The position numbers and the translations under genes were made by a program. The notes beneath the pieces were generated by a model. That model searched no databases, had not been told where the DNA came from, and saw only the letters and a list, made by a program, of their open reading frames with translations. Below are positions 10,644 through 40,249 of a DNA stretch of 64,000 nucleotides, in pieces. The stretch covers positions 76,439-140,438 of the forward strand of contig JBAXQK010000003.1 of NCBI GenBank assembly GCA_037131775.1, in the 5' to 3' direction. This DNA is from Candidatus Uhrbacteria bacterium. Lineage in GTDB: Bacteria > Patescibacteriota > Patescibacteriia > UBA9934 > GWF2-40-263. The number at the start of each line of letters is the position of its first letter. The first letter of the stretch is position 1.

Positions 10644-10773
10644 AGGGGAAAGAAACAAAATTCAAGAAGGGCAAGATGCAAAGAAGATTCAACGGCCAAG
10701 GGACAAAATTGAAATTTTACGTTTCAACTTTGATTCTTCCTTGTCTCTTGCCCTTCTTGCATTTGCCTCTTTC

Positions 10774-11787: not shown

Positions 11788-11821
11788 AGTCGTTGAGTCT
11801 TTGAGTCGTTAAGTCGCTGAG
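11788..11821. repeat. tandem 8-nt direct repeats (GAGTCGTT-like x4) in the gap 5' leader
   Basis: AGTCGTTG AGTCTTTG AGTCGTTA AGTCGCTG. No inverted partner seen. Confidence 0.7.
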
Positions 11822-12245: not shown

Positions 12246-12277
12246 ATGCAAAAACAGGGCTCGATTGAGCCCTGTTT
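12246..12277 (-). terminator. rho-independent terminator after tsf
   Basis: AAACAGGGCUC gauu GAGCCCUGUUU, then UUUUGCAUU. Perfect 11-bp stem. Confidence 0.8.
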
Positions 12278-12286
12278 AATCTCTTC

Positions 12287-12874
12287 CTAGGAAATCATGA
12301 ACCGTGCGAACCGGGCCACCTGGATGTTTTCCCCAATCGTGGAGATCTTTCCCTTGATGTACTCGCTGACCGTCAGGTCCTCGTCCTTGATGAAGGTCTG
12401 CTCCATCAGGCAGATTTCGCCGAACCACTTGTTCAGCTTGCCCTCGACGATCTTCTCGACGATTTCGGCCGGCTTGGCCTGCTCGGCCACCTCGGCGCGG
12501 AACAGTTCCTTCTGCTTCTCGACCAGGTCCTGCGGGACGTCCTCGCGGCGGACGTAGAGCGGGTCGGCGGCTCCCACGTGCATGGCGACGTCGTGGCAGA
12601 GCGCCCCGAACGCCTCGTTGCGGGCCACGAAGTCGGTCTCGCAGAGGATCTCGACCATCGCGCCAAGCTTGCCGTTGCCGTGCAGGTACGCGTGAACCTT
12701 CCCTTCCTTGGTCTCGCGCTCGGCCTTCTTGTCGGCCTTGGCAAGCCCCTTCTCCTGGAGCTTCTCCGCGGCAACCGTCAGGTCGCCGTTGGCTTCCTCA
12801 AGGGCCTTCTTCGCGTCCATCATTCCGGCACCGGTCATTTCGCGCAGCTGCGCGACGAGCTTTGCATCGATCAT
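12287..12874 (-). CDS. tsf: elongation factor Ts (short form)
   Basis: 195 aa; MIDAKLVAQLREMTGAGMMDAKKALEE... Downstream of rpsB. Confidence 0.9.
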   Translation of the reverse strand: MIDAKLVAQLREMTGAGMMDAKKALEEANGDLTVAAEKLQEKGLAKADKKAERETKEGKVHAYLHGNGKLGAMVEILCETDFVARNEAFGALCHDVAMHVGAADPLYVRREDVPQDLVEKQKELFRAEVAEQAKPAEIVEKIVEGKLNKWFGEICLMEQTFIKDEDLTVSEYIKGKISTIGENIQVARFARFMIS

Positions 12875-12904: not shown

Positions 12905-13654
12905 CTACGCCGCCTTCGCCGGGGTCGCGGCCACCTTCGCGGCCTCCACGGCCTTCAGGTTGCGCATCGCCTCCGCCTTTCCTTCCGTAACGGCCTCGGC
13001 CACGAGGCGGGTGATCATCTCAATCGCCTTCACCGCGTCGTCGTTGGTCGGGATGACCATGTGTACGCCGCTCGGGTTCACGTTGGTGTCGCACATGGCG
13101 ACGACCTTCGTACCGGTGGTGTTGGCCTCCATGACCGCGGTCTTCTCGGTGCGGATGTCCACCACGAAGATCGCCTCCGGCGGCTTCTCAAGCATCTGGA
13201 TTCCACCAACCTTGTGCTCCATCTCCTCGATCTCGCGGCCGAGGACGATCTGCTCCTTCTTCGTGTACTTCTTCAGCTCGCCCTTCTCGCGCTGGTCCTT
13301 CAGCGAGCGGAGGCGCTTCAGCGTGACCTTGATCTGCGGGAAGTTGGTCAGCGTTCCGCCAAGCCAGCGCTCGGTCACGAACGGCATACCGCACTGTTCC
13401 GCGTACTTGCGCACGATCGGCTGCGCCTGGCGCTTGGTTCCGACGAACAGCACGTTGCCGCCGCGGGCCACCACGGAGCGAACGTACTCCAGGGCCTCCG
13501 GAAGCATCTTCTGCGTCTTCTCAAGGTCGACAATGTGAATGGATCCGCGCGATCCGAAAATATACGGCTTCATCTTCGGGTGCCAGCGCGACGTCTGGTG
13601 ACCAAAGTGAACGCCGGCCTGGAGCATCTCCACGAGCGAAGGCAATTTGCCCAT
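12905..13654 (-). CDS. rpsB: 30S ribosomal protein S2
   Basis: MGKLPSLVEMLQAGVHFGHQTSRWHPKMKPYIF... RBS AAGGAAAA 9 nt upstream. Confidence 0.93.
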   Translation of the reverse strand: MGKLPSLVEMLQAGVHFGHQTSRWHPKMKPYIFGSRGSIHIVDLEKTQKMLPEALEYVRSVVARGGNVLFVGTKRQAQPIVRKYAEQCGMPFVTERWLGGTLTNFPQIKVTLKRLRSLKDQREKGELKKYTKKEQIVLGREIEEMEHKVGGIQMLEKPPEAIFVVDIRTEKTAVMEANTTGTKVVAMCDTNVNPSGVHMVIPTNDDAVKAIEMITRLVAEAVTEGKAEAMRNLKAVEAAKVAATPAKAA

Positions 13655-13822: not shown

Positions 13823-14944
13823 TTAGCGAATAAACATCGCGTCCCCGAACGAGAAGAACCGGTATCCGAGACGGACGGCTTCCTCGTAGGCCGCGACGAC
13901 GTTCTCCCTCCCCGCGAACGCGGAGACGAGGACGAGGAGGGTGGACTTTGGAAGGTGGAAGTTGGTGATGAGGGCGTCGATGACCTTGAACTCGAAGCCG
14001 GGGGTGATGAACAGGTTCACGTCGGCGGAGAAACCGTCGGCTGGCAAAACGTCCCTGTCATTGCGAGGTCCGCAGACCGAAGCAATCTCATCGAGGGATT
14101 GCTTCGTCGTTGAGACTCCTCGCAATGACGACGCGACGCCCTCGAGGACGCGGACGGTCGTCGTTCCAACCGCGACGATGCGACGACCTTCCCGCTTCGC
14201 CGCGTTGATGCGACCAGCCGTCTCCGCGTCGATCGACACGAACTCGGCGTGCATCACGTGTTCCTCGAGCGTCTCGGTCTTTACCGGGCGGAACGTGCCG
14301 ATCCCCACATGGAGCGTGACGAACTCGAACTGGACGCCCTTCGCCTTGAGCGTCGCGATCAGCGCGTCGGTGAAGTGGAACCCCGCGGTGGGCGCCGCGA
14401 CCGAGCCGACGGTCTTCGCGTACACGGTCTGATACTCGTCGAGCTTCGCTGGCGCCTTGTCCACGTACGGCGGAACCGGGATCTCGCCGTGCGCGTCCGC
14501 GAACGCGATGACCTCGTCGACCGTCGCGTTCATCTCGAGCGTCACGACCCCATCGTCCCTCTTCTCGACGACGACCGCGACCATCCCACGCAGATCGATC
14601 CAGTCCCCAAGGGCGACCTTCTTCCCAGGCCGCACCATCGCCGACCACCGCGTCCCTTCCCCGCGCAGCAGGAATACTTCGAGGCCGATCTTCTTTCCAG
14701 GGACGCTGACCGTCCCGCTCAATCGTGCCTTGAAAACTTTTGTGTTGTTCATCACCAGCACATCGCCCGCGACCAACTCGTCGACGATCTCCCAGAACAC
14801 CTTGTGCATACGCTCCCCCGACGCACGATCCAGCACCAACATTCGCGACGAATCGCGCGGGGAAACCGAAAACTGGGCGATTTGCTCGGGCGGGAGGTGG
14901 TAGTCGAACAGGGAGATGGGTGTGGGCACAAGGCGTAACGACAA
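13823..14944 (-). CDS. queA: S-adenosylmethionine:tRNA ribosyltransferase-isomerase
   Basis: Aligns with QueA from ...PISLFDYHLPPEQIAQ to ...RFFSFGDAMFIR. Track ORF 13823..15412 has a spurious N-terminal extension overlapping the divergent gene. Start uncertain: TTG 14944, GTG 14929 or ATG 14989. Confidence 0.8.
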   Translation of the reverse strand: MSLRLVPTPISLFDYHLPPEQIAQFSVSPRDSSRMLVLDRASGERMHKVFWEIVDELVAGDVLVMNNTKVFKARLSGTVSVPGKKIGLEVFLLRGEGTRWSAMVRPGKKVALGDWIDLRGMVAVVVEKRDDGVVTLEMNATVDEVIAFADAHGEIPVPPYVDKAPAKLDEYQTVYAKTVGSVAAPTAGFHFTDALIATLKAKGVQFEFVTLHVGIGTFRPVKTETLEEHVMHAEFVSIDAETAGRINAAKREGRRIVAVGTTTVRVLEGVASSLRGVSTTKQSLDEIASVCGPRNDRDVLPADGFSADVNLFITPGFEFKVIDALITNFHLPKSTLLVLVSAFAGRENVVAAYEEAVRLGYRFFSFGDAMFIR

Positions 14945-19383: not shown

Positions 19384-19425
19384 CGGAGAATAACCCGTTA
19401 CTTTGCCAGTCTCAGCAAAGATTTT

Positions 19426-19477
19426 AAAAAACCGCTCAACATACCTCGCAGCTGCGAGGTATGTTGAGCGGTTTTTT
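19426..19477. terminator. bidirectional terminator, perfect 20-bp palindrome flanked by A6/T6
   Basis: aaaaaa CCGCTCAACATACCTCGCAG|CTGCGAGGTATGTTGAGCGG tttttt. Confidence 0.85.
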
Positions 19478-19484
19478 ATTTCCA

Positions 19485-23320: not shown

Positions 23321-23328
23321 GTGGAGGA

Positions 23329-23402
23329 TTGTAGGATAGTAGGAATGTAGCGCAGTAGGGGAAAAAACGCTACTTACCTACCGCCCTACCATCCTACCTC
23401 CT
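23329..23402. repeat. inverted array of tandem 8-nt repeats (GTAGGnnn x4 / nnnCCTAC x4)
   Basis: GTAGGATA GTAGGAAT GTAGCGCA GTAGGGGA aaaaacgctactta CCTACCGC CCTACCAT CCTACCTC. Lies between the stop of 23394..24317 and the ftsW start. Confidence 0.8.
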
Positions 23403-24460: not shown

Positions 24461-25423
24461 ATGGAAAGACGGCTCTTCGACAAGCCCATGAGCGAGCTAC
24501 GCGAGGCATTCGTCCGCGCGCGGTTCGCGGAACCCAAGATGTTCGGCAGCCCTGACGTCGAGTCGACGTCTATCTGGGTCAACGCCCCGGCCTTCCACGC
24601 ATGGCTCAAGGCGAACTGGAACGGCAACGATGTTGTTGATGGATACGCGGCGGTTCTCGAACGCGTGGCGACGCGTGCATCCCGAGACGAAGTTCTCCGC
24701 TCGCTTCCAGATATGAAGTGCCTCGAAACGGCTCGCACCCTTCTCGGCAGCCTGGACGCCGACACGTCGCTCTATCACAGTCCTTTCTCGAAAACGGTCG
24801 TTCTCGTTCGCGACCATACCGTCCTCACGCTGTCACCAAATACACCGGAAGAGATCGACATCAGCGTCCGTCCTGCCAGCGTCTTCGACGTTTGTTGGGT
24901 CGTATCCACTGAGAGGTTACACGGCAGACCGAAAGCTGAAGCCGCGCTCGCCTGGCTCAGGCAGCAGTATGCTGCCGCGATCCTGTCCGTCCGCGAGTCC
25001 GCCGAGCGCGACTTCGACGAGGCGGTCGCGGTCAGCGCCTACGGGACGAAGATCGTGAAGGCGAAGTGGGTGATCGCCGTACACGTCGAGCGCAACGGCG
25101 TGGCGTGGCTCTTCCCCGCTTCCGCGTTCCGCGAGAACAAGGTTCGGCTCCGCCAAGACGTCGAATTCGATCGACAGAACGTTCGGCAGCTCAACCACTT
25201 CGACCCCAAGCAGTTCCAGGCGTACATGACGAAAGACCCAACCAAGTCGTTCCTCGAGGACGCTCGACACACGCTCCTTCGCGCCATGTTCGAAAGGAAA
25301 TCGTACGCGCAGCGCCTGATCACGATCGATGACCGCGTCATCAAGGACTTTGGAAGCGTCCTCGTCGCGAACGTCACTGACTGCCCCTCCCCGCTCCCCT
25401 CCGGCAGCCGTATTCCCAGCTGA
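24461..25423 (+). CDS. hypothetical protein (320 aa)
   Basis: GC3-rich. Followed by a clean terminator. Confidence 0.55.
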   Translation: MERRLFDKPMSELREAFVRARFAEPKMFGSPDVESTSIWVNAPAFHAWLKANWNGNDVVDGYAAVLERVATRASRDEVLRSLPDMKCLETARTLLGSLDADTSLYHSPFSKTVVLVRDHTVLTLSPNTPEEIDISVRPASVFDVCWVVSTERLHGRPKAEAALAWLRQQYAAAILSVRESAERDFDEAVAVSAYGTKIVKAKWVIAVHVERNGVAWLFPASAFRENKVRLRQDVEFDRQNVRQLNHFDPKQFQAYMTKDPTKSFLEDARHTLLRAMFERKSYAQRLITIDDRVIKDFGSVLVANVTDCPSPLPSGSRIPS

Positions 25424-27590: not shown

Positions 27591-27602
27591 AGAAAAATGT
27601 GA

Positions 27603-27630
27603 GACGAGCCTTGACGAAGGCTCGTTTTTC
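27603..27630 (+). terminator. terminator after gyrB; loop doubles as a -35 box
   Basis: ACGAGCCUU gacg AAGGCUCGU + UUUUUC. Confidence 0.8.
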
Positions 27631-27639
27631 ATGTAGAAA
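27611..27639 (+). promoter_or_regulatory. promoter TTGACG-17-TAGAAA for 27660..28253
   Basis: -35 lies in the loop of the gyrB terminator. SD AGGAGAG and ATG follow. Confidence 0.4.
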
Positions 27640-27659: not shown

Positions 27660-28253
27660 ATGGATGAAACGTCGAAATCACCAGTGGACACCCGCATCAA
27701 GCGAAAGCGGAATGCGAGCGAACGCAGGGCGTTCGTCGCCGGCGTCGGACGCAAGTTGCGATTCGTCGTCCTCGTGCACCTGCCACTGGACATGGACGAG
27801 GACCATGCGAGCAGGATGACCGGCGACGTCATCGAAAAGGAGAACGTTCGGGCCGGCAACTGCAAGAAGCAACCGTTGTCCGGAACGTTCATCGTAGGCC
27901 CACGGAGCGAGGTGACCTTCGACGGCCCCACGAGGGACTCGTCGCGGGACCTGGTCGTGGAGTTCACCGGCGACGTCCTCGTCAGGAAGACGGACCGCCA
28001 TATCCGCAACCCCCTCGAGGTAGAGCTCGACCGAGACGTGTTCGTTCAGCTGCGGGACCTGTTGATGCTGCTTACCCGTAAGTTTGGCATCGTGAACGGC
28101 GGCGGAGAAATTTCGCTCGGCGACTTCAAGACGAACATCACGCTGACGAACGGCAGGCTGACGAGCGAGAACGACCCGATCGTCGAGGTCAACCCGAAGG
28201 ACGTCGTCACCGTCGCCGTCACGGGCGATCCACCGTTCAGGGAGTTCAACTAG
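27660..28253 (+). CDS. hypothetical protein (197 aa)
   Basis: GC3-rich. SD AGGAGAG upstream. Strong terminator downstream. Confidence 0.55.
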   Translation: MDETSKSPVDTRIKRKRNASERRAFVAGVGRKLRFVVLVHLPLDMDEDHASRMTGDVIEKENVRAGNCKKQPLSGTFIVGPRSEVTFDGPTRDSSRDLVVEFTGDVLVRKTDRHIRNPLEVELDRDVFVQLRDLLMLLTRKFGIVNGGGEISLGDFKTNITLTNGRLTSENDPIVEVNPKDVVTVAVTGDPPFREFN

Positions 28254-28278
28254 GCCGCGCTCCGGCCTCTTTTTTTAT
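28253..28278 (+). terminator. terminator after 27660..28253
   Basis: GGCCG cgctc CGGCC + TCTTTTTTTTAT. Confidence 0.85.
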
Positions 28279-28304
28279 CCCATTTTCCCCCGTCCCCACT
28301 GCCT

Positions 28305-28333
28305 TTGACACGAATCCCCTCTTCCTGTATAGT
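28305..28333 (+). promoter_or_regulatory. consensus promoter TTGACA-17-TATAGT for secE-nusG
   Basis: TTGACA 28305-28310, TATAGT 28328-28333. A small GNRA hairpin (28343-28358) lies in the leader. Confidence 0.7.
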
Positions 28334-28376
28334 ATCCTCGAAAGGCCCGCAAGGGCTTCTTAAAATAGCGCACCGT

Positions 28377-28583
28377 ATGACGAAGCCCCTCAAACTTGCC
28401 GTGCAGTACATTCGCGAATCCAAGGAAGAGCTGGAGAAGGTCACCTGGCCGACGCGCCAGCAGACGCTTCGCTATTCCATCCTGGTGGTCGTGGTCGCCG
28501 TCGGCATGGGTCTCTTCTTCGCCGGACTCGACGCCGCTCTCAACCTGGGCCTCGAGAAACTGATCGGACTTACGACCAAGTAA
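28377..28583 (+). CDS. secE: preprotein translocase subunit SecE
   Basis: MTKPLKLAVQYIRESKEELEKVTWPTRQQTLRYSILVVVVAVGMGLFF...; upstream of nusG. Confidence 0.85.
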   Translation: MTKPLKLAVQYIRESKEELEKVTWPTRQQTLRYSILVVVVAVGMGLFFAGLDAALNLGLEKLIGLTTK

Positions 28584-28596
28584 CGTTCTTTCCACT

Positions 28597-29142
28597 ATGC
28601 CAAAGCAAACAGCCAACTACGGCCGCCGCTGGTACGCGATCCACACGTACTCCGGATACGAGGACAACGTCTCCGAGGCGCTTCACCAGCGCATCGAGAC
28701 GATGGACATGCACGAGAAGATCTTCGACGTGCTCGTGCCGAAGGAGAAGAAGATCAAGATCAAGAACGGCAAGCGCAAGACCACGGAGGAAAAGATCTTC
28801 CCGGGCTACGTGCTGGTGGAGATGATCGTGACGGACGACTCGTGGTACGTGGTGCGCAACACGCCGAACGTCACCGGGTTCATCGGAACGGGAACGGTCC
28901 CGACGCCGATCGCGCCCGAGGAGATCGAGGCGCTTCTGAAGCGGACCCGCGTCGGCGAGCCGGAAACCACGCTCGACGTGGAGAAGGGATCGATCGTGAA
29001 GATCAACGACGGCCCGTTCAAGAACTTCGAGGGAAAGGTGTCGGCCATCGACGAGCAGCGCGGCAAGATCAAGGTTCTCGTGAACATGTTCGGCCGCGAG
29101 ACTCCTGTCGAGCTGGACTTCTTGCAGGTGCAGAAGGTGTAG
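28597..29142 (+). CDS. nusG: transcription termination/antitermination factor NusG
   Basis: ...RWYAIHTYSGYEDNV...; KOW motif region. Confidence 0.92.
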   Translation: MPKQTANYGRRWYAIHTYSGYEDNVSEALHQRIETMDMHEKIFDVLVPKEKKIKIKNGKRKTTEEKIFPGYVLVEMIVTDDSWYVVRNTPNVTGFIGTGTVPTPIAPEEIEALLKRTRVGEPETTLDVEKGSIVKINDGPFKNFEGKVSAIDEQRGKIKVLVNMFGRETPVELDFLQVQKV

Positions 29143-29145
29143 GCC

Positions 29146-29234
29146 GTCACAGATTACGGATTATACGGATGTACGGATTAGATACTTGGCCGAGTGTCTG
29201 ATCCGTACATCCTTACCCATCCGTAATCCGTGAC
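29146..29234. repeat. long imperfect hairpin from tandem heptads (TACGGAT x3 / ATCCGTA x3)
   Basis: gtcacagatTACGGATtaTACGGATgTACGGATtagatacttggccgagtgtctgATCCGTAcATCCtTAcccATCCGTAATCCGTgac. Immediately after the nusG stop. Confidence 0.8.
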
Positions 29235-29310
29235 ACAATTTCACTAACTAACATAGCAATGGTAGCCACCGGGCCACAAACCCCTTGGAATCCATTCAAA
29301 CAAAACTGCT

Positions 29311-29733
29311 ATGGCAAAGAAACTCATTACGCAGGTTAAGCTTCAGATCCCGGGTGCGGCTGCGACCCCGGCCCCGCCGGTCGGTCCGGCGCTCGGTCAG
29401 CACGGGCTGAACATCGCCAGCTTCGTGAAGCAGTTCAACGACGCGACGCAGAACCGCCGCGGAGAGACGGTTCCGGTCATCATCAACGTGTACGAGGACC
29501 GCAGCTTCGACTTCATCATGAAGGTGGCCCCGGCCTCCGGACTCATCGCGAAGGCCGCCGGCATCGCGAAGGGATCGGGCAAGCCGCTCACCGAGAAGGT
29601 CGGCAAGATCACGCAGGCCCAGCTCCGCGAAATCGCCGAGAAGAAGCTCCCGGACCTCAACACCTCGGACATCGACGCCGCCATGAAGATTATCGCCGGA
29701 ACGGCGCGCCAGATGGGAGTGGACATTGTCTAA
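29311..29733 (+). CDS. rplK: 50S ribosomal protein L11
   Basis: [35 protein letters not shown]... Confidence 0.95.
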
Positions 29734-29750
29734 ATTTAGGCAGAAGGCTG

Positions 29751-29819
29751 AAAGGCATTAGGCTTAAGGGTTTACAGCCCGGCGGACTTACGCCTTAAGC
29801 CTTAAGCCTTAAGCCTGAA
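29751..29819. repeat. hairpin from tandem heptads (GCCTTAA x3.5 with inverse AGGCTTAAGG arm)
   Basis: aAGGCTgaaAGGCattAGGCTTAAGGgtttacagcccggcggacttacGCCTTAAGCCTTAAGCCTTAAGCCTgaa. Between the rplK stop and the small membrane ORF. Confidence 0.8.
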
Positions 29820-29822
29820 CAT

Positions 29823-30188
29823 ATGACCAAAGGAGGATCGATCATTCTCAGAATCTACTTCTCGCTCGTGGCGTTCGTGACCCTGATGATTCTTATCTTC
29901 TCGGTTTCGGACCTCATCAACATCGTGCTGAAGACCTACGTGTTCACCGCCGCGGACCGCCCGGCGTACACGAGCTACTGCGACCTCACCACGCAGACCC
30001 AGGCGCAGTGCGACACGCAGAAGAAGAATGACGAGGAATCGTCCATGGCCGTCAAGCAGCAGGACGCCGTCCGCGACATCGCTCTCCTCCTCGTCGCTTC
30101 CCCGCTGTTCTGGCTCCACTTCCGTGTCGTGTACCGAGATCTGATGGGAGACAAGGAAGAGGAGAAGAACGACAAGAAAAAAGCTTAA
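29823..30188 (+). CDS. small membrane protein (121 aa, 2 TM), unknown; inserted between rplK and rplA
   Basis: MTKGGSIILRIYFSLVAFVTLMILIF...VRDIALLLVASPLFWLHF... plus a K/E-rich tail. Confidence 0.5.
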   Translation: MTKGGSIILRIYFSLVAFVTLMILIFSVSDLINIVLKTYVFTAADRPAYTSYCDLTTQTQAQCDTQKKNDEESSMAVKQQDAVRDIALLLVASPLFWLHFRVVYRDLMGDKEEEKNDKKKA

Positions 30189-30236
30189 TACTAACCTGAT
30201 CGTGGAAGGCGAGAGCCGTTACACCACGCAAATCAT

Positions 30237-30920
30237 ATGGCAGGAAAGCGCTTTACGGAGGCCAAGAAGCTCGTCACGGACAAGAAGGTTTACTCGATCG
30301 TCGATGGAATCGCGCTCCTCAAGAGCTTCCCGAAGGCCGGCTTCGACGAGGGCGTCGAGCTGCACGTGAACCTCGGCATCGACCCGAGCAAGGGCGACCA
30401 GCAGGTGCGCGGAACGATCGCGTTCCCGCACGGAGTCGGAAAGTCCAAGCGCGTCGCCGTGTTCGTGGAGGCCGCCAAGGAAGCCGAGGCCAAGGCCGCG
30501 GGCGCCGACATCGTCGGAGGAGAGGACCTCATCACCGAGATCGCGGCCAAGGGCATCATCAACTTCGACGTGGCCATCGCCACGCCGGCCATGATGCCGA
30601 AGATCGCCAAGCTCGCGAAGCTCCTCGGACCGAAGGGCCTCATGCCAAACCCGAAGAACGACACCGTCGGCCCGAACGTCACCAAGATGATCGCCGAGCA
30701 GAAGGCCGGAAAGCAGAGCTTCAAGAACGACAACACCGCCAACGTCCACCAGATCGTCGGCCGCGTGTCCATGACGGACGCCCAGCTCAAGGAGAACCTC
30801 GCCCCGTTCGTCGACCAGCTCCGCAAGATGAAGCCGGCGTCCTCCAAGGGCATCTACTTCAAGAGCGCGACGCTGACGACCACGATGGGCCCGGGGATCA
30901 AGGTTGACCTCAACTCGTAG
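30237..30920 (+). CDS. rplA: 50S ribosomal protein L1
   Basis: MAGKRFTEAKKLVTDKKVYSIVDGIALLK... Confidence 0.95.
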   Translation: MAGKRFTEAKKLVTDKKVYSIVDGIALLKSFPKAGFDEGVELHVNLGIDPSKGDQQVRGTIAFPHGVGKSKRVAVFVEAAKEAEAKAAGADIVGGEDLITEIAAKGIINFDVAIATPAMMPKIAKLAKLLGPKGLMPNPKNDTVGPNVTKMIAEQKAGKQSFKNDNTANVHQIVGRVSMTDAQLKENLAPFVDQLRKMKPASSKGIYFKSATLTTTMGPGIKVDLNS

Positions 30921-38100: not shown

Positions 38101-38532
38101 ATGGACATCTCTGTGGATATCAAAAGACTGGGCCCGGACGTGCCGGTTCCCGAGTACAAGACGACCGGCGCGATTGCGTTCGATATCGCCGTTTCCGAGC
38201 AAAAGACGATCCAGCCGGGCGAAACGGCATTTATTTCCACAGGGTTGGTCGTCTGCACCCCGCCCGGATACGGACTGATCCTTGCCGGCCGTTCTTCGAA
38301 CGCGAAAAAGCAGATCACGCTCGCGAACGGAATCGCGATTATCGACCAGGACTATTGCGGTCCGAGCGACCAGCTCCTCCTGTCCATTCGCAACGAGGGG
38401 CCAATCGCCTATACCGTCGAACGGGGCGAACGAATCGCGCAAGGGCTGTTCGTTCCCATCGTCCGCGCGATATTTCGCGACGTCGAGACACTGTCCGCCC
38501 CGGACCGCGGGGGGTACGGGACTACCGGATAG
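38101..38532 (+). CDS. dut: dUTP diphosphatase
   Basis: 143 aa; dUTPase motifs ...AGRSS... and ...RGERIAQ... Confidence 0.8.
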   Translation: MDISVDIKRLGPDVPVPEYKTTGAIAFDIAVSEQKTIQPGETAFISTGLVVCTPPGYGLILAGRSSNAKKQITLANGIAIIDQDYCGPSDQLLLSIRNEGPIAYTVERGERIAQGLFVPIVRAIFRDVETLSAPDRGGYGTTG

Positions 38533-38559
38533 GTCCTATTGGACCCATCGGACCTATGC

Positions 38560-38565
38560 TATAAT
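38560..38565 (+). promoter_or_regulatory. TATAAT -10 box 6 nt upstream of the tmk-like ATG (leaderless), within tandem GGACCYAT repeats (38531-38571)
   Basis: aGGTCCTATtGGACCCATcGGACCTATgcTATAATcGACCTATG. Confidence 0.5.
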
Positions 38566-38571
38566 CGACCT

Positions 38572-39308: not shown

Positions 39309-40178
39309 ATGGCCCTTATCACCATCGGAGAGCTCATCGACCGCTCCTGGGAGCACTATCACAAGGAATTCTCCAGCCTCATGAGCGTTTCCGGATGGAT
39401 CCTGCTCGTGGCAATCTTCAACGTGGCGACGCTAGCGCTCTACCCGTCCGCGTCCCGGCTGCTCACCGTCGACACGACGCTTACGAAACCGGAGGCGGTC
39501 GGCGTGGCCATGTACGCCTTTTCCAACTGGGTTCTCGGGCCGCTGCTCGGTCTCTGGATCTTCATCACGCTCATCCGTCTCATCCGCTCGCAGCTGTCCG
39601 GAAAGCGCGCGGGGATCCGGGAGGCGCTCGCCGACGGAAAGAAGTACTTCCTTCCCACGCTGGCCGTCACCGCCATGATCTTCCTGATCCTCGTGGCCGT
39701 CGTCCTGATCGGGTTCGGACCGTCGCTCATCCTGTCCCTTTTGGCGACCGTCACGAAGCTCGGCTTCCTCACCGTTCTCGCGACGATTTCCCTGGTCGTC
39801 GGCGTGATGGCTTCCCTCGTCCTTGGAATCCGCTGGTCCGTCCACTACTACTTCGCGCCGTTTACCCTTCTCGTGGACGACGTGCGCGGCAAGGCCGCGC
39901 TGACCGCGGCGCGCAAGCTGGTCGACGGACGGTTCTGGCAGGTCCTCATCCGCCTCGCCCTCCCGAAGATCTTGTTCATCCTCGTTGGCGTTCTCCTCAT
40001 GGCGCTGGTCCAGTTCGTCTTCTCCGTCGTGAGCAGCGCGTTCGTCGGACTCAGCGTCGACGTCCAGCTCCGCATCTCCACGATCGTCCTGTCCGTACTC
40101 TCCACGCTCGTCGCCGCCCTTATCAACCCGCTCATCGTCGCCTCCGACCTGATGCTTTATCAATCTTTGAAAAGGTAG
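39309..40178 (+). CDS. polytopic membrane protein, unknown (paralogue 1)
   Basis: MALITIGELIDRSWEHYHKEF... about 6 TM. Paralogous to the next gene. Confidence 0.6.
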   Translation: MALITIGELIDRSWEHYHKEFSSLMSVSGWILLVAIFNVATLALYPSASRLLTVDTTLTKPEAVGVAMYAFSNWVLGPLLGLWIFITLIRLIRSQLSGKRAGIREALADGKKYFLPTLAVTAMIFLILVAVVLIGFGPSLILSLLATVTKLGFLTVLATISLVVGVMASLVLGIRWSVHYYFAPFTLLVDDVRGKAALTAARKLVDGRFWQVLIRLALPKILFILVGVLLMALVQFVFSVVSSAFVGLSVDVQLRISTIVLSVLSTLVAALINPLIVASDLMLYQSLKR

Positions 40179-40242
40179 GTAGTTTGTGGTGAGTCGTGAG
40201 TAGTTTGAATACCACTCACTACAAACCACTCACTACAAACTA
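40179..40242. repeat. inverted array of tandem 7-nt repeats (CCACTCA/CTACAAA x2 vs complement)
   Basis: GTAGTTTGTGGTGAGTCGTGAGTAGTTTG aata CCACTCACTACAAACCACTCACTACAAACTA. Between the two paralogous membrane-protein genes. Confidence 0.75.
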
Positions 40243-40249
40243 ACTCGAT

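Follow-up and report, generated by a model that had tools for sequence, protein, structure and literature searches.

A strain-variable hairpin of tandem heptads between nusG and rplK in a Candidatus Uhrbacteria genome, most likely a gene-less relative of the 23S rRNA intervening sequences

Introduction

The protein family PF05635 is named after the open reading frame (ORF) of 23S rRNA intervening sequences (IVS), and many classical IVS, for example those of Salmonella, have no ORF. Other small insertions that form hairpins in transcripts are known from bacteria. MITEs of this kind include the Correia elements of Neisseria and the ERIC/IRU elements of enterobacteria, which are small, non-coding, bounded by inverted repeats, co-transcribed with their surroundings and variable between strains, and which are expected to be substrates of RNase III. 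REP sequences are extragenic palindromes found after stop codons; their arms are short imperfect palindromes with a 5' GTAG, and they occur in many near-identical copies with RAYT transposases.

The 23S IVS of Coxiella has been called selfish, and it combines a 28-bp stem of terminal inverted repeats with an S23p ORF for a four-helix-bundle protein (PMC4990558). In its 5' region AGAAGA and three tandem GACAGAT heptamers (plus one GACAGAA) precede the start of the ORF; three to four GACAGAT heptamers stand before the ATG, and their number varies with the strain (PMC4990558). It was determined that RNase III cuts the stem in its middle, at the start of the first repeat, and reductive decay of the ORF was reported (PMC4990558). 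The 5' arm of this IVS is purine-rich. Intergenic TAACTGA heptamers have additionally been described in Beggiatoaceae, Cyanobacteria and Bacteroidetes, where 169 sets are direct and 1 is indirect (PMC4679880).

In this paper, a hairpin made of tandem heptads (H1) that directly follows nusG in a Candidatus Uhrbacteria (Patescibacteria/CPR) genome will be discussed. It lies in a stretch of 64,000 nucleotides, which we call the window and which amounts to ~6% of the genome if the genome is taken as ~1 Mb (an assumed size). We will focus on how H1 is built, whether it regulates the genes on either side of it, how it is distributed among strains, and how it compares with other elements. We regard H1 as most likely a strain-specific copy, without a gene, of a selfish stem-loop element akin to the 23S rRNA IVS. 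Related loci and contigs are referred to by L numbers.

Structure and Location of the Hairpin

The window is ~62% GC with tightly packed genes. A sigma-70-type promoter, immediately preceded by a U-tract terminator (28252-28276), is followed by secE, nusG (28597-29142), H1, a 76-nt leader, rplK (29311-29733) and a second hairpin, H2; downstream of H2 come a gene for a small membrane protein (DUF5671), rplA and a gene of the dCTP deaminase family. H1 is probably transcribed from this promoter. The membrane-protein gene (29823-30188, 121 aa, faint DUF5671 match) separates rplK from rplA; of 62 related loci that were measured, many have an insert of ~450-570 nt between these two genes.

A first reading of the DNA, made from the sequence only, had described a hairpin directly after the nusG stop with three TACGGAT heptads and three inverted ATCCGTA heptads. 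The sequence and position of the hairpin, which begins 3 nt past the stop codon, were confirmed. Exact TACGGAT copies on the plus strand begin at 29155, 29164 and 29172 in the left arm, but the right arm has exact ATCCGTA only at 29201-29207 and 29219-29225, together with the one-mismatch copies ATCCTTA (29209-29215) and ATCCGTG (29226-29232). CACAGAT (29148-29154) is an outer fourth unit of the left arm, so that each arm has four units instead of three. TACGGAT occurs only twice more in the 64-kb window, which is the level expected by chance, and H1 alone has it in array form.

The plus-strand RNA of H1 has a predicted folding energy of -56.4 kcal/mol, compared with -22.4 +/- 3.4 for 200 dinucleotide shuffles (z = -10.1), and 0 of the 200 shuffles folded as well. 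The 89 nt form 38 pairs, leaving an apical loop of only a few unpaired nucleotides, and the minus strand folds nearly as well (-53.7). The stem is AT-richer than the genome. A sliding-window census of minimum free energy reported 786 "hairpins" across the window and was uninformative as a hairpin detector because coding sequence of 62% GC folds everywhere.

Other hairpins of the window are built in the same way from other units. A k-mer detector for tandem and inverted tandem units found 3 sites in the window where 0.18 were expected (at most 1 in 50 shuffles), and 26 against 1.2 expected over 587 kb of related loci. The first reading was right that the heptad-array build is unusual, and also that it returns in the window with other units. 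We located it at the four hairpins H2 to H5 and a solo arm (Table 1). The units differ at each of the six sites. In H2 one arm has three perfect TTAAGCC copies and the partner arm is degenerate, which implies ongoing slippage. The solo arm matches the arms of the post-nusG elements in L003 and L004.

Short GGACCTAT-type unit arrays were also seen in two more spacers of this species group (L212 9881-9914 and window 38520-38566). In the first 1000 nt (1-1000) of L095, a metagenome contig of 66% GC, several near-identical hairpins with TACGGAT arms stand in tandem with a period of ~105 nt.

Table 1. Coordinates of H1, the features around it and the other tandem-unit hairpins of the window
Feature	Position	Strand	Description
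H1	29146..29234	+	89-nt palindromic element, 38-bp imperfect hairpin
H1 5' arm heptads	29148..29178	+	CACAGAT-TACGGAT-ta-TACGGAT-g-TACGGAT, spacing 0, 2, 1
H1 3' arm heptads	29201..29232	+	ATCCGTA-c-ATCCtTA-ccc-ATCCGTA-ATCCGTg, mirror of 5' arm
nusG stop	29140..29142	+	TAG in the window; TAA in empty-site strains
Sigma-70-type promoter	28305..28333	+	TTGACA-17-TATAGT, upstream of secE
Conserved rplK leader (candidate)	29252..29313	+	outside H1; CAUAGC pairs with GCUAUG, including the start codon
H2	29735..29819	+	AAGGCTn and TTAAGCC units (AAGGCTT/AAGCCTT); rplK to DUF5671 gene
H3	23323..23398	-	GGTAGGnn octads; fills 73-nt spacer between 307-aa gene and ftsW; overlaps upstream TAG stop
H4	40174..40245	+	fills 71-nt spacer; overlaps upstream TAG stop
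H5	10650..10771	-	gap (GAPDH) to Pyr_redox_2 gene
Solo arm	11788..11821	+	AGTCGTnn octads upstream of gap

Transcription Termination and the rplK Leader

The spacer between nusG and rplK is a classic regulatory site, and H1 had been placed where a secE-nusG terminator or attenuator and the leader of the L11 operon would be expected. For a terminator this expectation is borne out in relatives: in L016, L020, L022 and L025 nusG is followed by a U-tract terminator, then a TTGACA promoter and then the rplK leader. H1 does not have this arrangement. As the first reading had already noted, it has no U-tract; its 3' flank is ACACAATTTCAC, and a terminator scan found no site there. Canonical terminators with a GC stem and a U-tract are used elsewhere in the genome (for example at 12257-12288, 19425-19478, 27601-27632 and 28252-28276). 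No promoter was found between H1 and rplK, and efficient termination at H1 would therefore shut off rplK and rplA. The attribution of a terminator or attenuator function to H1 is also at odds with strains that have identical NusG and L11 and lack the hairpin.

The terminator at 19425-19478 is a perfect 54-nt palindrome with an A-run on one side and a T-run on the other (TAAAAAACCGCTC...GAGCGGTTTTTTA). It lies between convergent genes and looks like a bidirectional intrinsic terminator.

The leader of rplK is a separate, conserved structure just downstream of H1 (Table 1), and H1 is absent in L001, L002, L081 and L082; H1 is accordingly not the L11-operon leader. Within the paired ends of this leader there is NUGGUNGC, followed by a variable hairpin and then GRAAUCCAN. 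The motif was found in 17 loci, 13 of which were folded together, with compensatory changes in 3 of the 7 consensus pairs, and RNAfold predicts the same fold in many relatives. It has no match in Rfam and is a candidate autoregulatory site for a ribosomal protein. The comparison with Rfam leader models that had been proposed gave no family at the gathering score over the whole window; there and in 28200-30400, searched at E <= 10, the only matches were weak generic miRNA-precursor hairpins below threshold. For annotation, this means that the conspicuous hairpin of this classic spacer should not be taken for its regulator and that a transfer from E. coli would mislead.

A small predicted hairpin, GTGGAAGGCGAGAGCCGTTACACCAC, lies just upstream of rplA (30200-30228) and is kept in L001, L081 and L082. 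It is possible that this hairpin binds L1, in which case the binding site would stand ahead of rplA and not ahead of rplK.

Presence and Absence Among Strains

A NusG scan with one genome per species yielded 80 related loci. In L001, NusG and L11 are 100% identical to those of the window and the nucleotide identity in these genes is 96-98%, but its nusG-rplK spacer has 66 nt and no H1. L001 also lacks H2, and ahead of its rplA it has a hairpin with GAAGGnTC units that is missing from the window. An exact NusG look-up across independent assemblies showed that the contigs with identical NusG differ at three adjacent spacers and form three haplotypes: none/none/none (L081 and L082), none/none/hairpin (the L001 type, which is the most frequent) and H1/H2/none (the window and L083, which has an identical copy of H1). 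Where H2 is absent (L001, L081 and L082) its spacer measures 25-28 nt instead of 89. The outgroup L002 has an empty H1 site, and L003 and L004 have a different element, made of AGTCGTnn octads, at the H1 position. H1 is thus an insertion/deletion polymorphism among near-identical strains, 3 nt past the nusG stop. The sequence-only reading had itself held that a lack of conservation of the array in related genomes would speak against its regulatory proposal, and strains of the same species with 100% identical NusG and L11 do lack H1.

A second region was obtained through homologues of GAPDH. H5 is missing in strain L208, where the spacer between gap and the next gene has 5 nt, and L208 has two hairpins that the window does not have, one of them within the 9-nt pgk-eno spacer. 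In total, sibling strains differ by a spacer-sized length at six places, and every one of these differences is a long hairpin that begins 0-3 nt past a stop codon. The elements other than H1 end 2-10 nt ahead of the next start, and empty sites of 5-9 nt are coupled junctions. No target-site duplication was seen at the six filled/empty pairs, the flanks of which have diverged enough for 1-2 nt to escape notice. The same six sites revealed no intermediates, and no arm could have been copied from an empty site (5-66 nt). The similarity between elements and empty-site flanks, judged by eye, was not significant (a rough hand estimate of ~0.1-0.3 for the best case). Exact look-ups returned nothing on record for the GAPDH product and only the same strain for FtsW and a 245-aa protein.

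Two ORFs without a Pfam match, 27660-28253 (197 aa) and 24461-25423 (320 aa), flank gyrB in the window strain and are missing in L081 and L082, where the neighbouring genes abut; gene content as well as hairpins therefore differs between strains. A region of 15-nt repeats within a long ORF (14019-14138) differs by ~85 nt in length from L208 and L212.

Arm Layouts Shared with Other Genomes

The arm layout of H1 recurs at unrelated loci of other Patescibacteria, in metagenome contigs and around genes of the PF05635 and GxxExxY families. Three families of layout can be described. Family A has the layout YACNNAT-TACNNAT-n(2-5)-TACNNAT-n-TACNNAT and occurs at non-orthologous loci in distant genomes; its members are H1, three copies in L033, and single copies in L037, L061, L070, L109, L119, L141 (in the map-ruvX spacer) and L187. 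The central dinucleotide (GG, GA, AG or AA) is common to all heptads within one family-A element. The three copies in L033 lie within 8.5 kb together with two further copies built from CTAATTT units. Family B (GGTAGGnn) comprises H3 and the post-nusG element of L043, and family C (AGTCGTnn) comprises the solo arm of the window and the elements of L003 and L004, whose arms, at the same site, differ by compensatory changes. Solo direct arrays were found at 11788 in the window and at 13630 and 18552 in L212, and this sister strain has a solo ATCCGTA array.

A metagenome scan for three TACGGAT copies returned at least 120 contigs, ~20 of which have inverted ATCCGTA arrays nearby; the search pattern itself accounts for part of the likeness of these matches to H1. 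Among viral contigs, the matches were mostly 9-mers coding for GTD or plain tandem repeats, and the pattern therefore finds a heterogeneous set. Inverted arrays of TACGGAT 9-mers, 60-110 nt apart, were seen in L220, L221, L223 and L231 (one phage), in L224/L229 and in L234. These pairs of arrays surround AT-rich DNA and resemble the iterons of origins. The remaining viral matches are for the most part GGTACGGAT coding repeats.

Two further kinds of hairpin were noted. One is a family of GC-rich palindromes with stems of 25-35 bp that start with GTCATTGCGAG... or TGTCATCC... and end with ...CTCGCAATGAC or ...GGATGACA; it occurs at L212 12325-12395 and in the nusG-rplK spacers of L050, L056, L059, L061 and L063. 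The other has a CGCTTCTC motif at the apex and is gene-less, and it occupies the nusG-rplK spacer of Magasanikbacteria-like genomes (L036, L047, L054, L057, L058, L063, L065, L069-L071, L073, L074 and L076). The same motif lies between the ORF and the 3' arm in the gene-bearing cassettes of L064, L072 and L079, and CGCTTCTC may be a part of the element or a second type of rplK leader.

Gene-Bearing Cassettes

Cassettes of 340-510 nt fill the slot directly past the nusG stop at other CPR loci. In these cassettes, inverted arms of tandem units surround a small gene in sense orientation. The cassettes surfaced in a search for inverted arrays 0.3-5 kb apart, and no transposase was found in that search. 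The gene in L064 and L079 encodes a four-helix-bundle protein (TIGR02436/PF05635, E ~1e-33 to 1e-35) that is weakly Avd-like, the L072 cassette has a truncated copy of a PF05635 gene, and the L051 cassette encodes a GxxExxY protein (TIGR04256, PF13366), which is nuclease-like (PD-(D/E)XK-like), between TACGAAT arms. In L068 a PF05635 cassette lies just upstream of nusG. Two contigs that were matched by the TACGGAT pattern only also have a gene between TACGGAT arrays, a GxxExxY gene in L092 and a PF05635 gene in L098. The arm of L092 shares its first unit (YACAGAT) and the 0/2/1 spacing with H1. To our knowledge, neither the PF05635 nor the GxxExxY protein mobilises DNA, and neither is a known transposase.

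The gene-bearing relatives probably correspond to classical bacterial IVS, except that they occupy the few nucleotides from one stop codon to the next start codon within co-transcribed protein genes and not 23S rRNA. No rRNA genes were found in the window with Rfam or in 20 related contigs. H1 has no ORF or remnant of one, and no PF05635 or GxxExxY gene was found by tblastn in the 64-kb window; the link between H1 and the cassettes therefore rests on the arm layout and the shared slot. That one slot holds gene-bearing (L064 and L079), truncated (L072) and gene-less (H1, L033 and L037) forms. By analogy, the series from L064 and L079 through L072 to H1-like elements resembles the reductive decay that was described for the ORF of the Coxiella IVS.

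Orientation Relative to the Host Genes

The elements show a bias of orientation with respect to the genes around them. In 16 of the 18 elements with a known direction of the host gene the stop-side arm is rich in purines and G and the start-side arm is rich in pyrimidines (two-sided binomial ~0.001), and this bias tracks the gene strand inside a single replichore. All five CPR cassettes (5/5) are in sense orientation. The arms of L064 and L072 have a composition opposite to the polarity of the ORF-less hairpins, and descent from cassettes therefore explains the polarity only partly. General G-poorness upstream of start codons, examined with crude start calls, gave no support as a cause of the polarity. 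In a test for selection at the RNA level, which compared G-U with A-C pairing by strand and gave a weak result, there were 48 versus 37 G-U pairs, and the sense fold was the more stable one in 13 of 20 cases.

Origin and Possible Effects of the Hairpin

H1 could be a local low-complexity palindrome, with heptads produced by slippage and an inverted arm produced by template switching, which would involve neither import nor kinship with IVS. Such an origin would fit the different unit of each window element, the contrast in H2 between the perfect TTAAGCC arm and its degenerate partner, the existence of solo direct arrays and the lack of a visible target-site duplication. However, empty sites of 5-66 nt hold no template for arms of 40 nt, intermediates are missing at the six polymorphic sites, and the four-unit spacing and the unit type are found again in distant genomes and in arms that flank genes; we regard a local origin as unlikely. 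We also see little prospect for H1 as a functional factor-independent terminator or attenuator dividing secE-nusG from rplK-rplA. The very stable stem directly past the nusG stop and the terminators that four relatives have at exactly this position would suit that function, but the U-tract of the genome's own terminators and the TTGACA promoter that follows the terminator in the relatives are both missing, and strains with identical NusG and L11 manage without H1.

The placement of the elements raises the question of whether they are selected inter-cistronic RNA devices that bring the stop codon close to the next start or leader for translational coupling, or that serve as processing sites setting the nusG:rplK ratio. 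Elements that begin 0-3 nt past a stop and, H1 excepted, end 2-10 nt before a start, empty sites that are coupled junctions of 5-9 nt, the orientation bias (16 of 18) and the compensatory changes between the same-site arms of L003 and L004 all point in this direction. On the other hand, sibling strains show no other change where the elements are missing, the start of rplK is 76 nt from H1 and separated from it by the leader, the strand-specific support from G-U pairs is weak and the general test of G-poor upstream regions gave no support, and selection for such a device seems improbable to us. A role at the DNA level, with the heptads as binding sites of a protein in an iteron-like or operator-like array, is very improbable. 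The central dinucleotide common to all heptads of one element is reminiscent of the iterons of one replicon, and phage contigs (L220, L224 and L234) do have inverted TACGGAT 9-mer pairs around AT-rich DNA; yet, since the units change from element to element, the 64-kb window would require at least five binding proteins, a spacing of 7-8 nt is too tight for independent sites on the duplex, and the elements lie inside operons and not at origins or promoters.

We consider it probable that H1 is an ORF-less stem-loop element of the IVS type that sits in an mRNA spacer and belongs to a family with directional insertion. Such an element would be transcribed within the secE-nusG-rplK message from the promoter upstream of secE, and its RNA would fold into the 38-bp stem. 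By analogy with the stems of IVS, RNase III may cut this stem, and the cleavage would split the nusG part of the message from the rplK part and leave the rplK leader intact. The effect of H1 is probably small because sibling strains do without it, and a net effect near neutral would allow H1 to come and go. The number of heptads probably drifts by slippage, which is made plausible by the Coxiella strains and by H2, where one arm has a perfect TTAAGCC triplet. A search for an RNase III signature motif, which covered a small part of the genome, gave no match, and no known transposase is associated with these elements.

More broadly, Patescibacteria may carry an abundant and undescribed class of IVS-type elements, although we put this forward tentatively. 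Members of the class would consist of inverted arrays of units of 7-9 nt, some of them enclosing a four-helix-bundle or GxxExxY gene, would lie in short stop-start spacers of co-transcribed genes in a fixed orientation and would turn over between strains. The host would tolerate them because the insert is folded out of the message by its stem and the operon is "punctuated" there by RNase III. No literature on such elements in Patescibacteria or outside rRNA was found in the library searched, though reports may exist. If this proposal is true, the IVS of 23S rRNA would be a long-known special case of a general parasite of operon spacers, and the 35-year-old question of how IVS move could be tested directly on natural sites with and without an insert. 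Matched natural sites of both kinds bear on the origin, mobility and function of IVS and of the widespread PF05635 and GxxExxY proteins. The precise insertion after stop codons and the orientation bias are handles on mobility, on mRNA processing by RNase III and on operon expression, in host organisms that cannot yet be grown alone.

Comparison with Known Systems

Intrinsic terminators are also stable hairpins directly past a stop codon, but the stem of H1 has 38 bp instead of 5-14 bp, is AT-richer than the genome and is not followed by a U-tract within ~8 nt. H1 resembles MITEs as a small non-coding insertion that is bounded by terminal inverted repeats and varies between strains, and like them it would be co-transcribed and a substrate of RNase III. 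Neither a target-site duplication nor a transposase-encoding parent was found for H1-type elements, and their arms are arrays of 7-9-nt units, different in each element of the window, and not unique terminal repeats. REP and REPIN elements share the placement after stop codons, and some families of H1-type elements are GTAG-rich (H3 and the element of L043); however, the arms of H1 are direct tandem arrays of heptads, and the copy number seems low, with one TACGGAT array in 64 kb. Like the TAACTGA repeats and the cyanobacterial STRR, H1-type elements place tandem heptamers in short spacers, in many cases close ahead of a start codon and also in ribosomal-protein operons. Those repeats use one heptamer per genome, almost always in direct orientation, whereas H1-type elements are inverted pairs with a new unit at each site.

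The agreement is closest with the 23S rRNA IVS of Coxiella burnetii, Leptospira and Salmonella. Both have a long inverted-repeat stem (28 bp in Coxiella and 38 bp in H1), and the arms of both the Coxiella IVS and H1 contain tandem heptamers, GACAGAT in the former and CACAGAT with TACGGAT in the latter, a similarity that is a lead and not proof of common descent. Both are distributed sporadically among strains, as seen in the three haplotypes around H1 and at three further polymorphic sites, and relatives of H1 in the same slot carry the PF05635 gene. The differences are that H1 itself has no PF05635/TIGR02436 ORF, that some of its relatives carry GxxExxY instead of PF05635, and that H1 lies in the nusG-rplK mRNA spacer and not in helix 9, 25 or 45. 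From this comparison, H1 is best read as an ORF-less IVS-type element that lies outside 23S rRNA, in an mRNA spacer.
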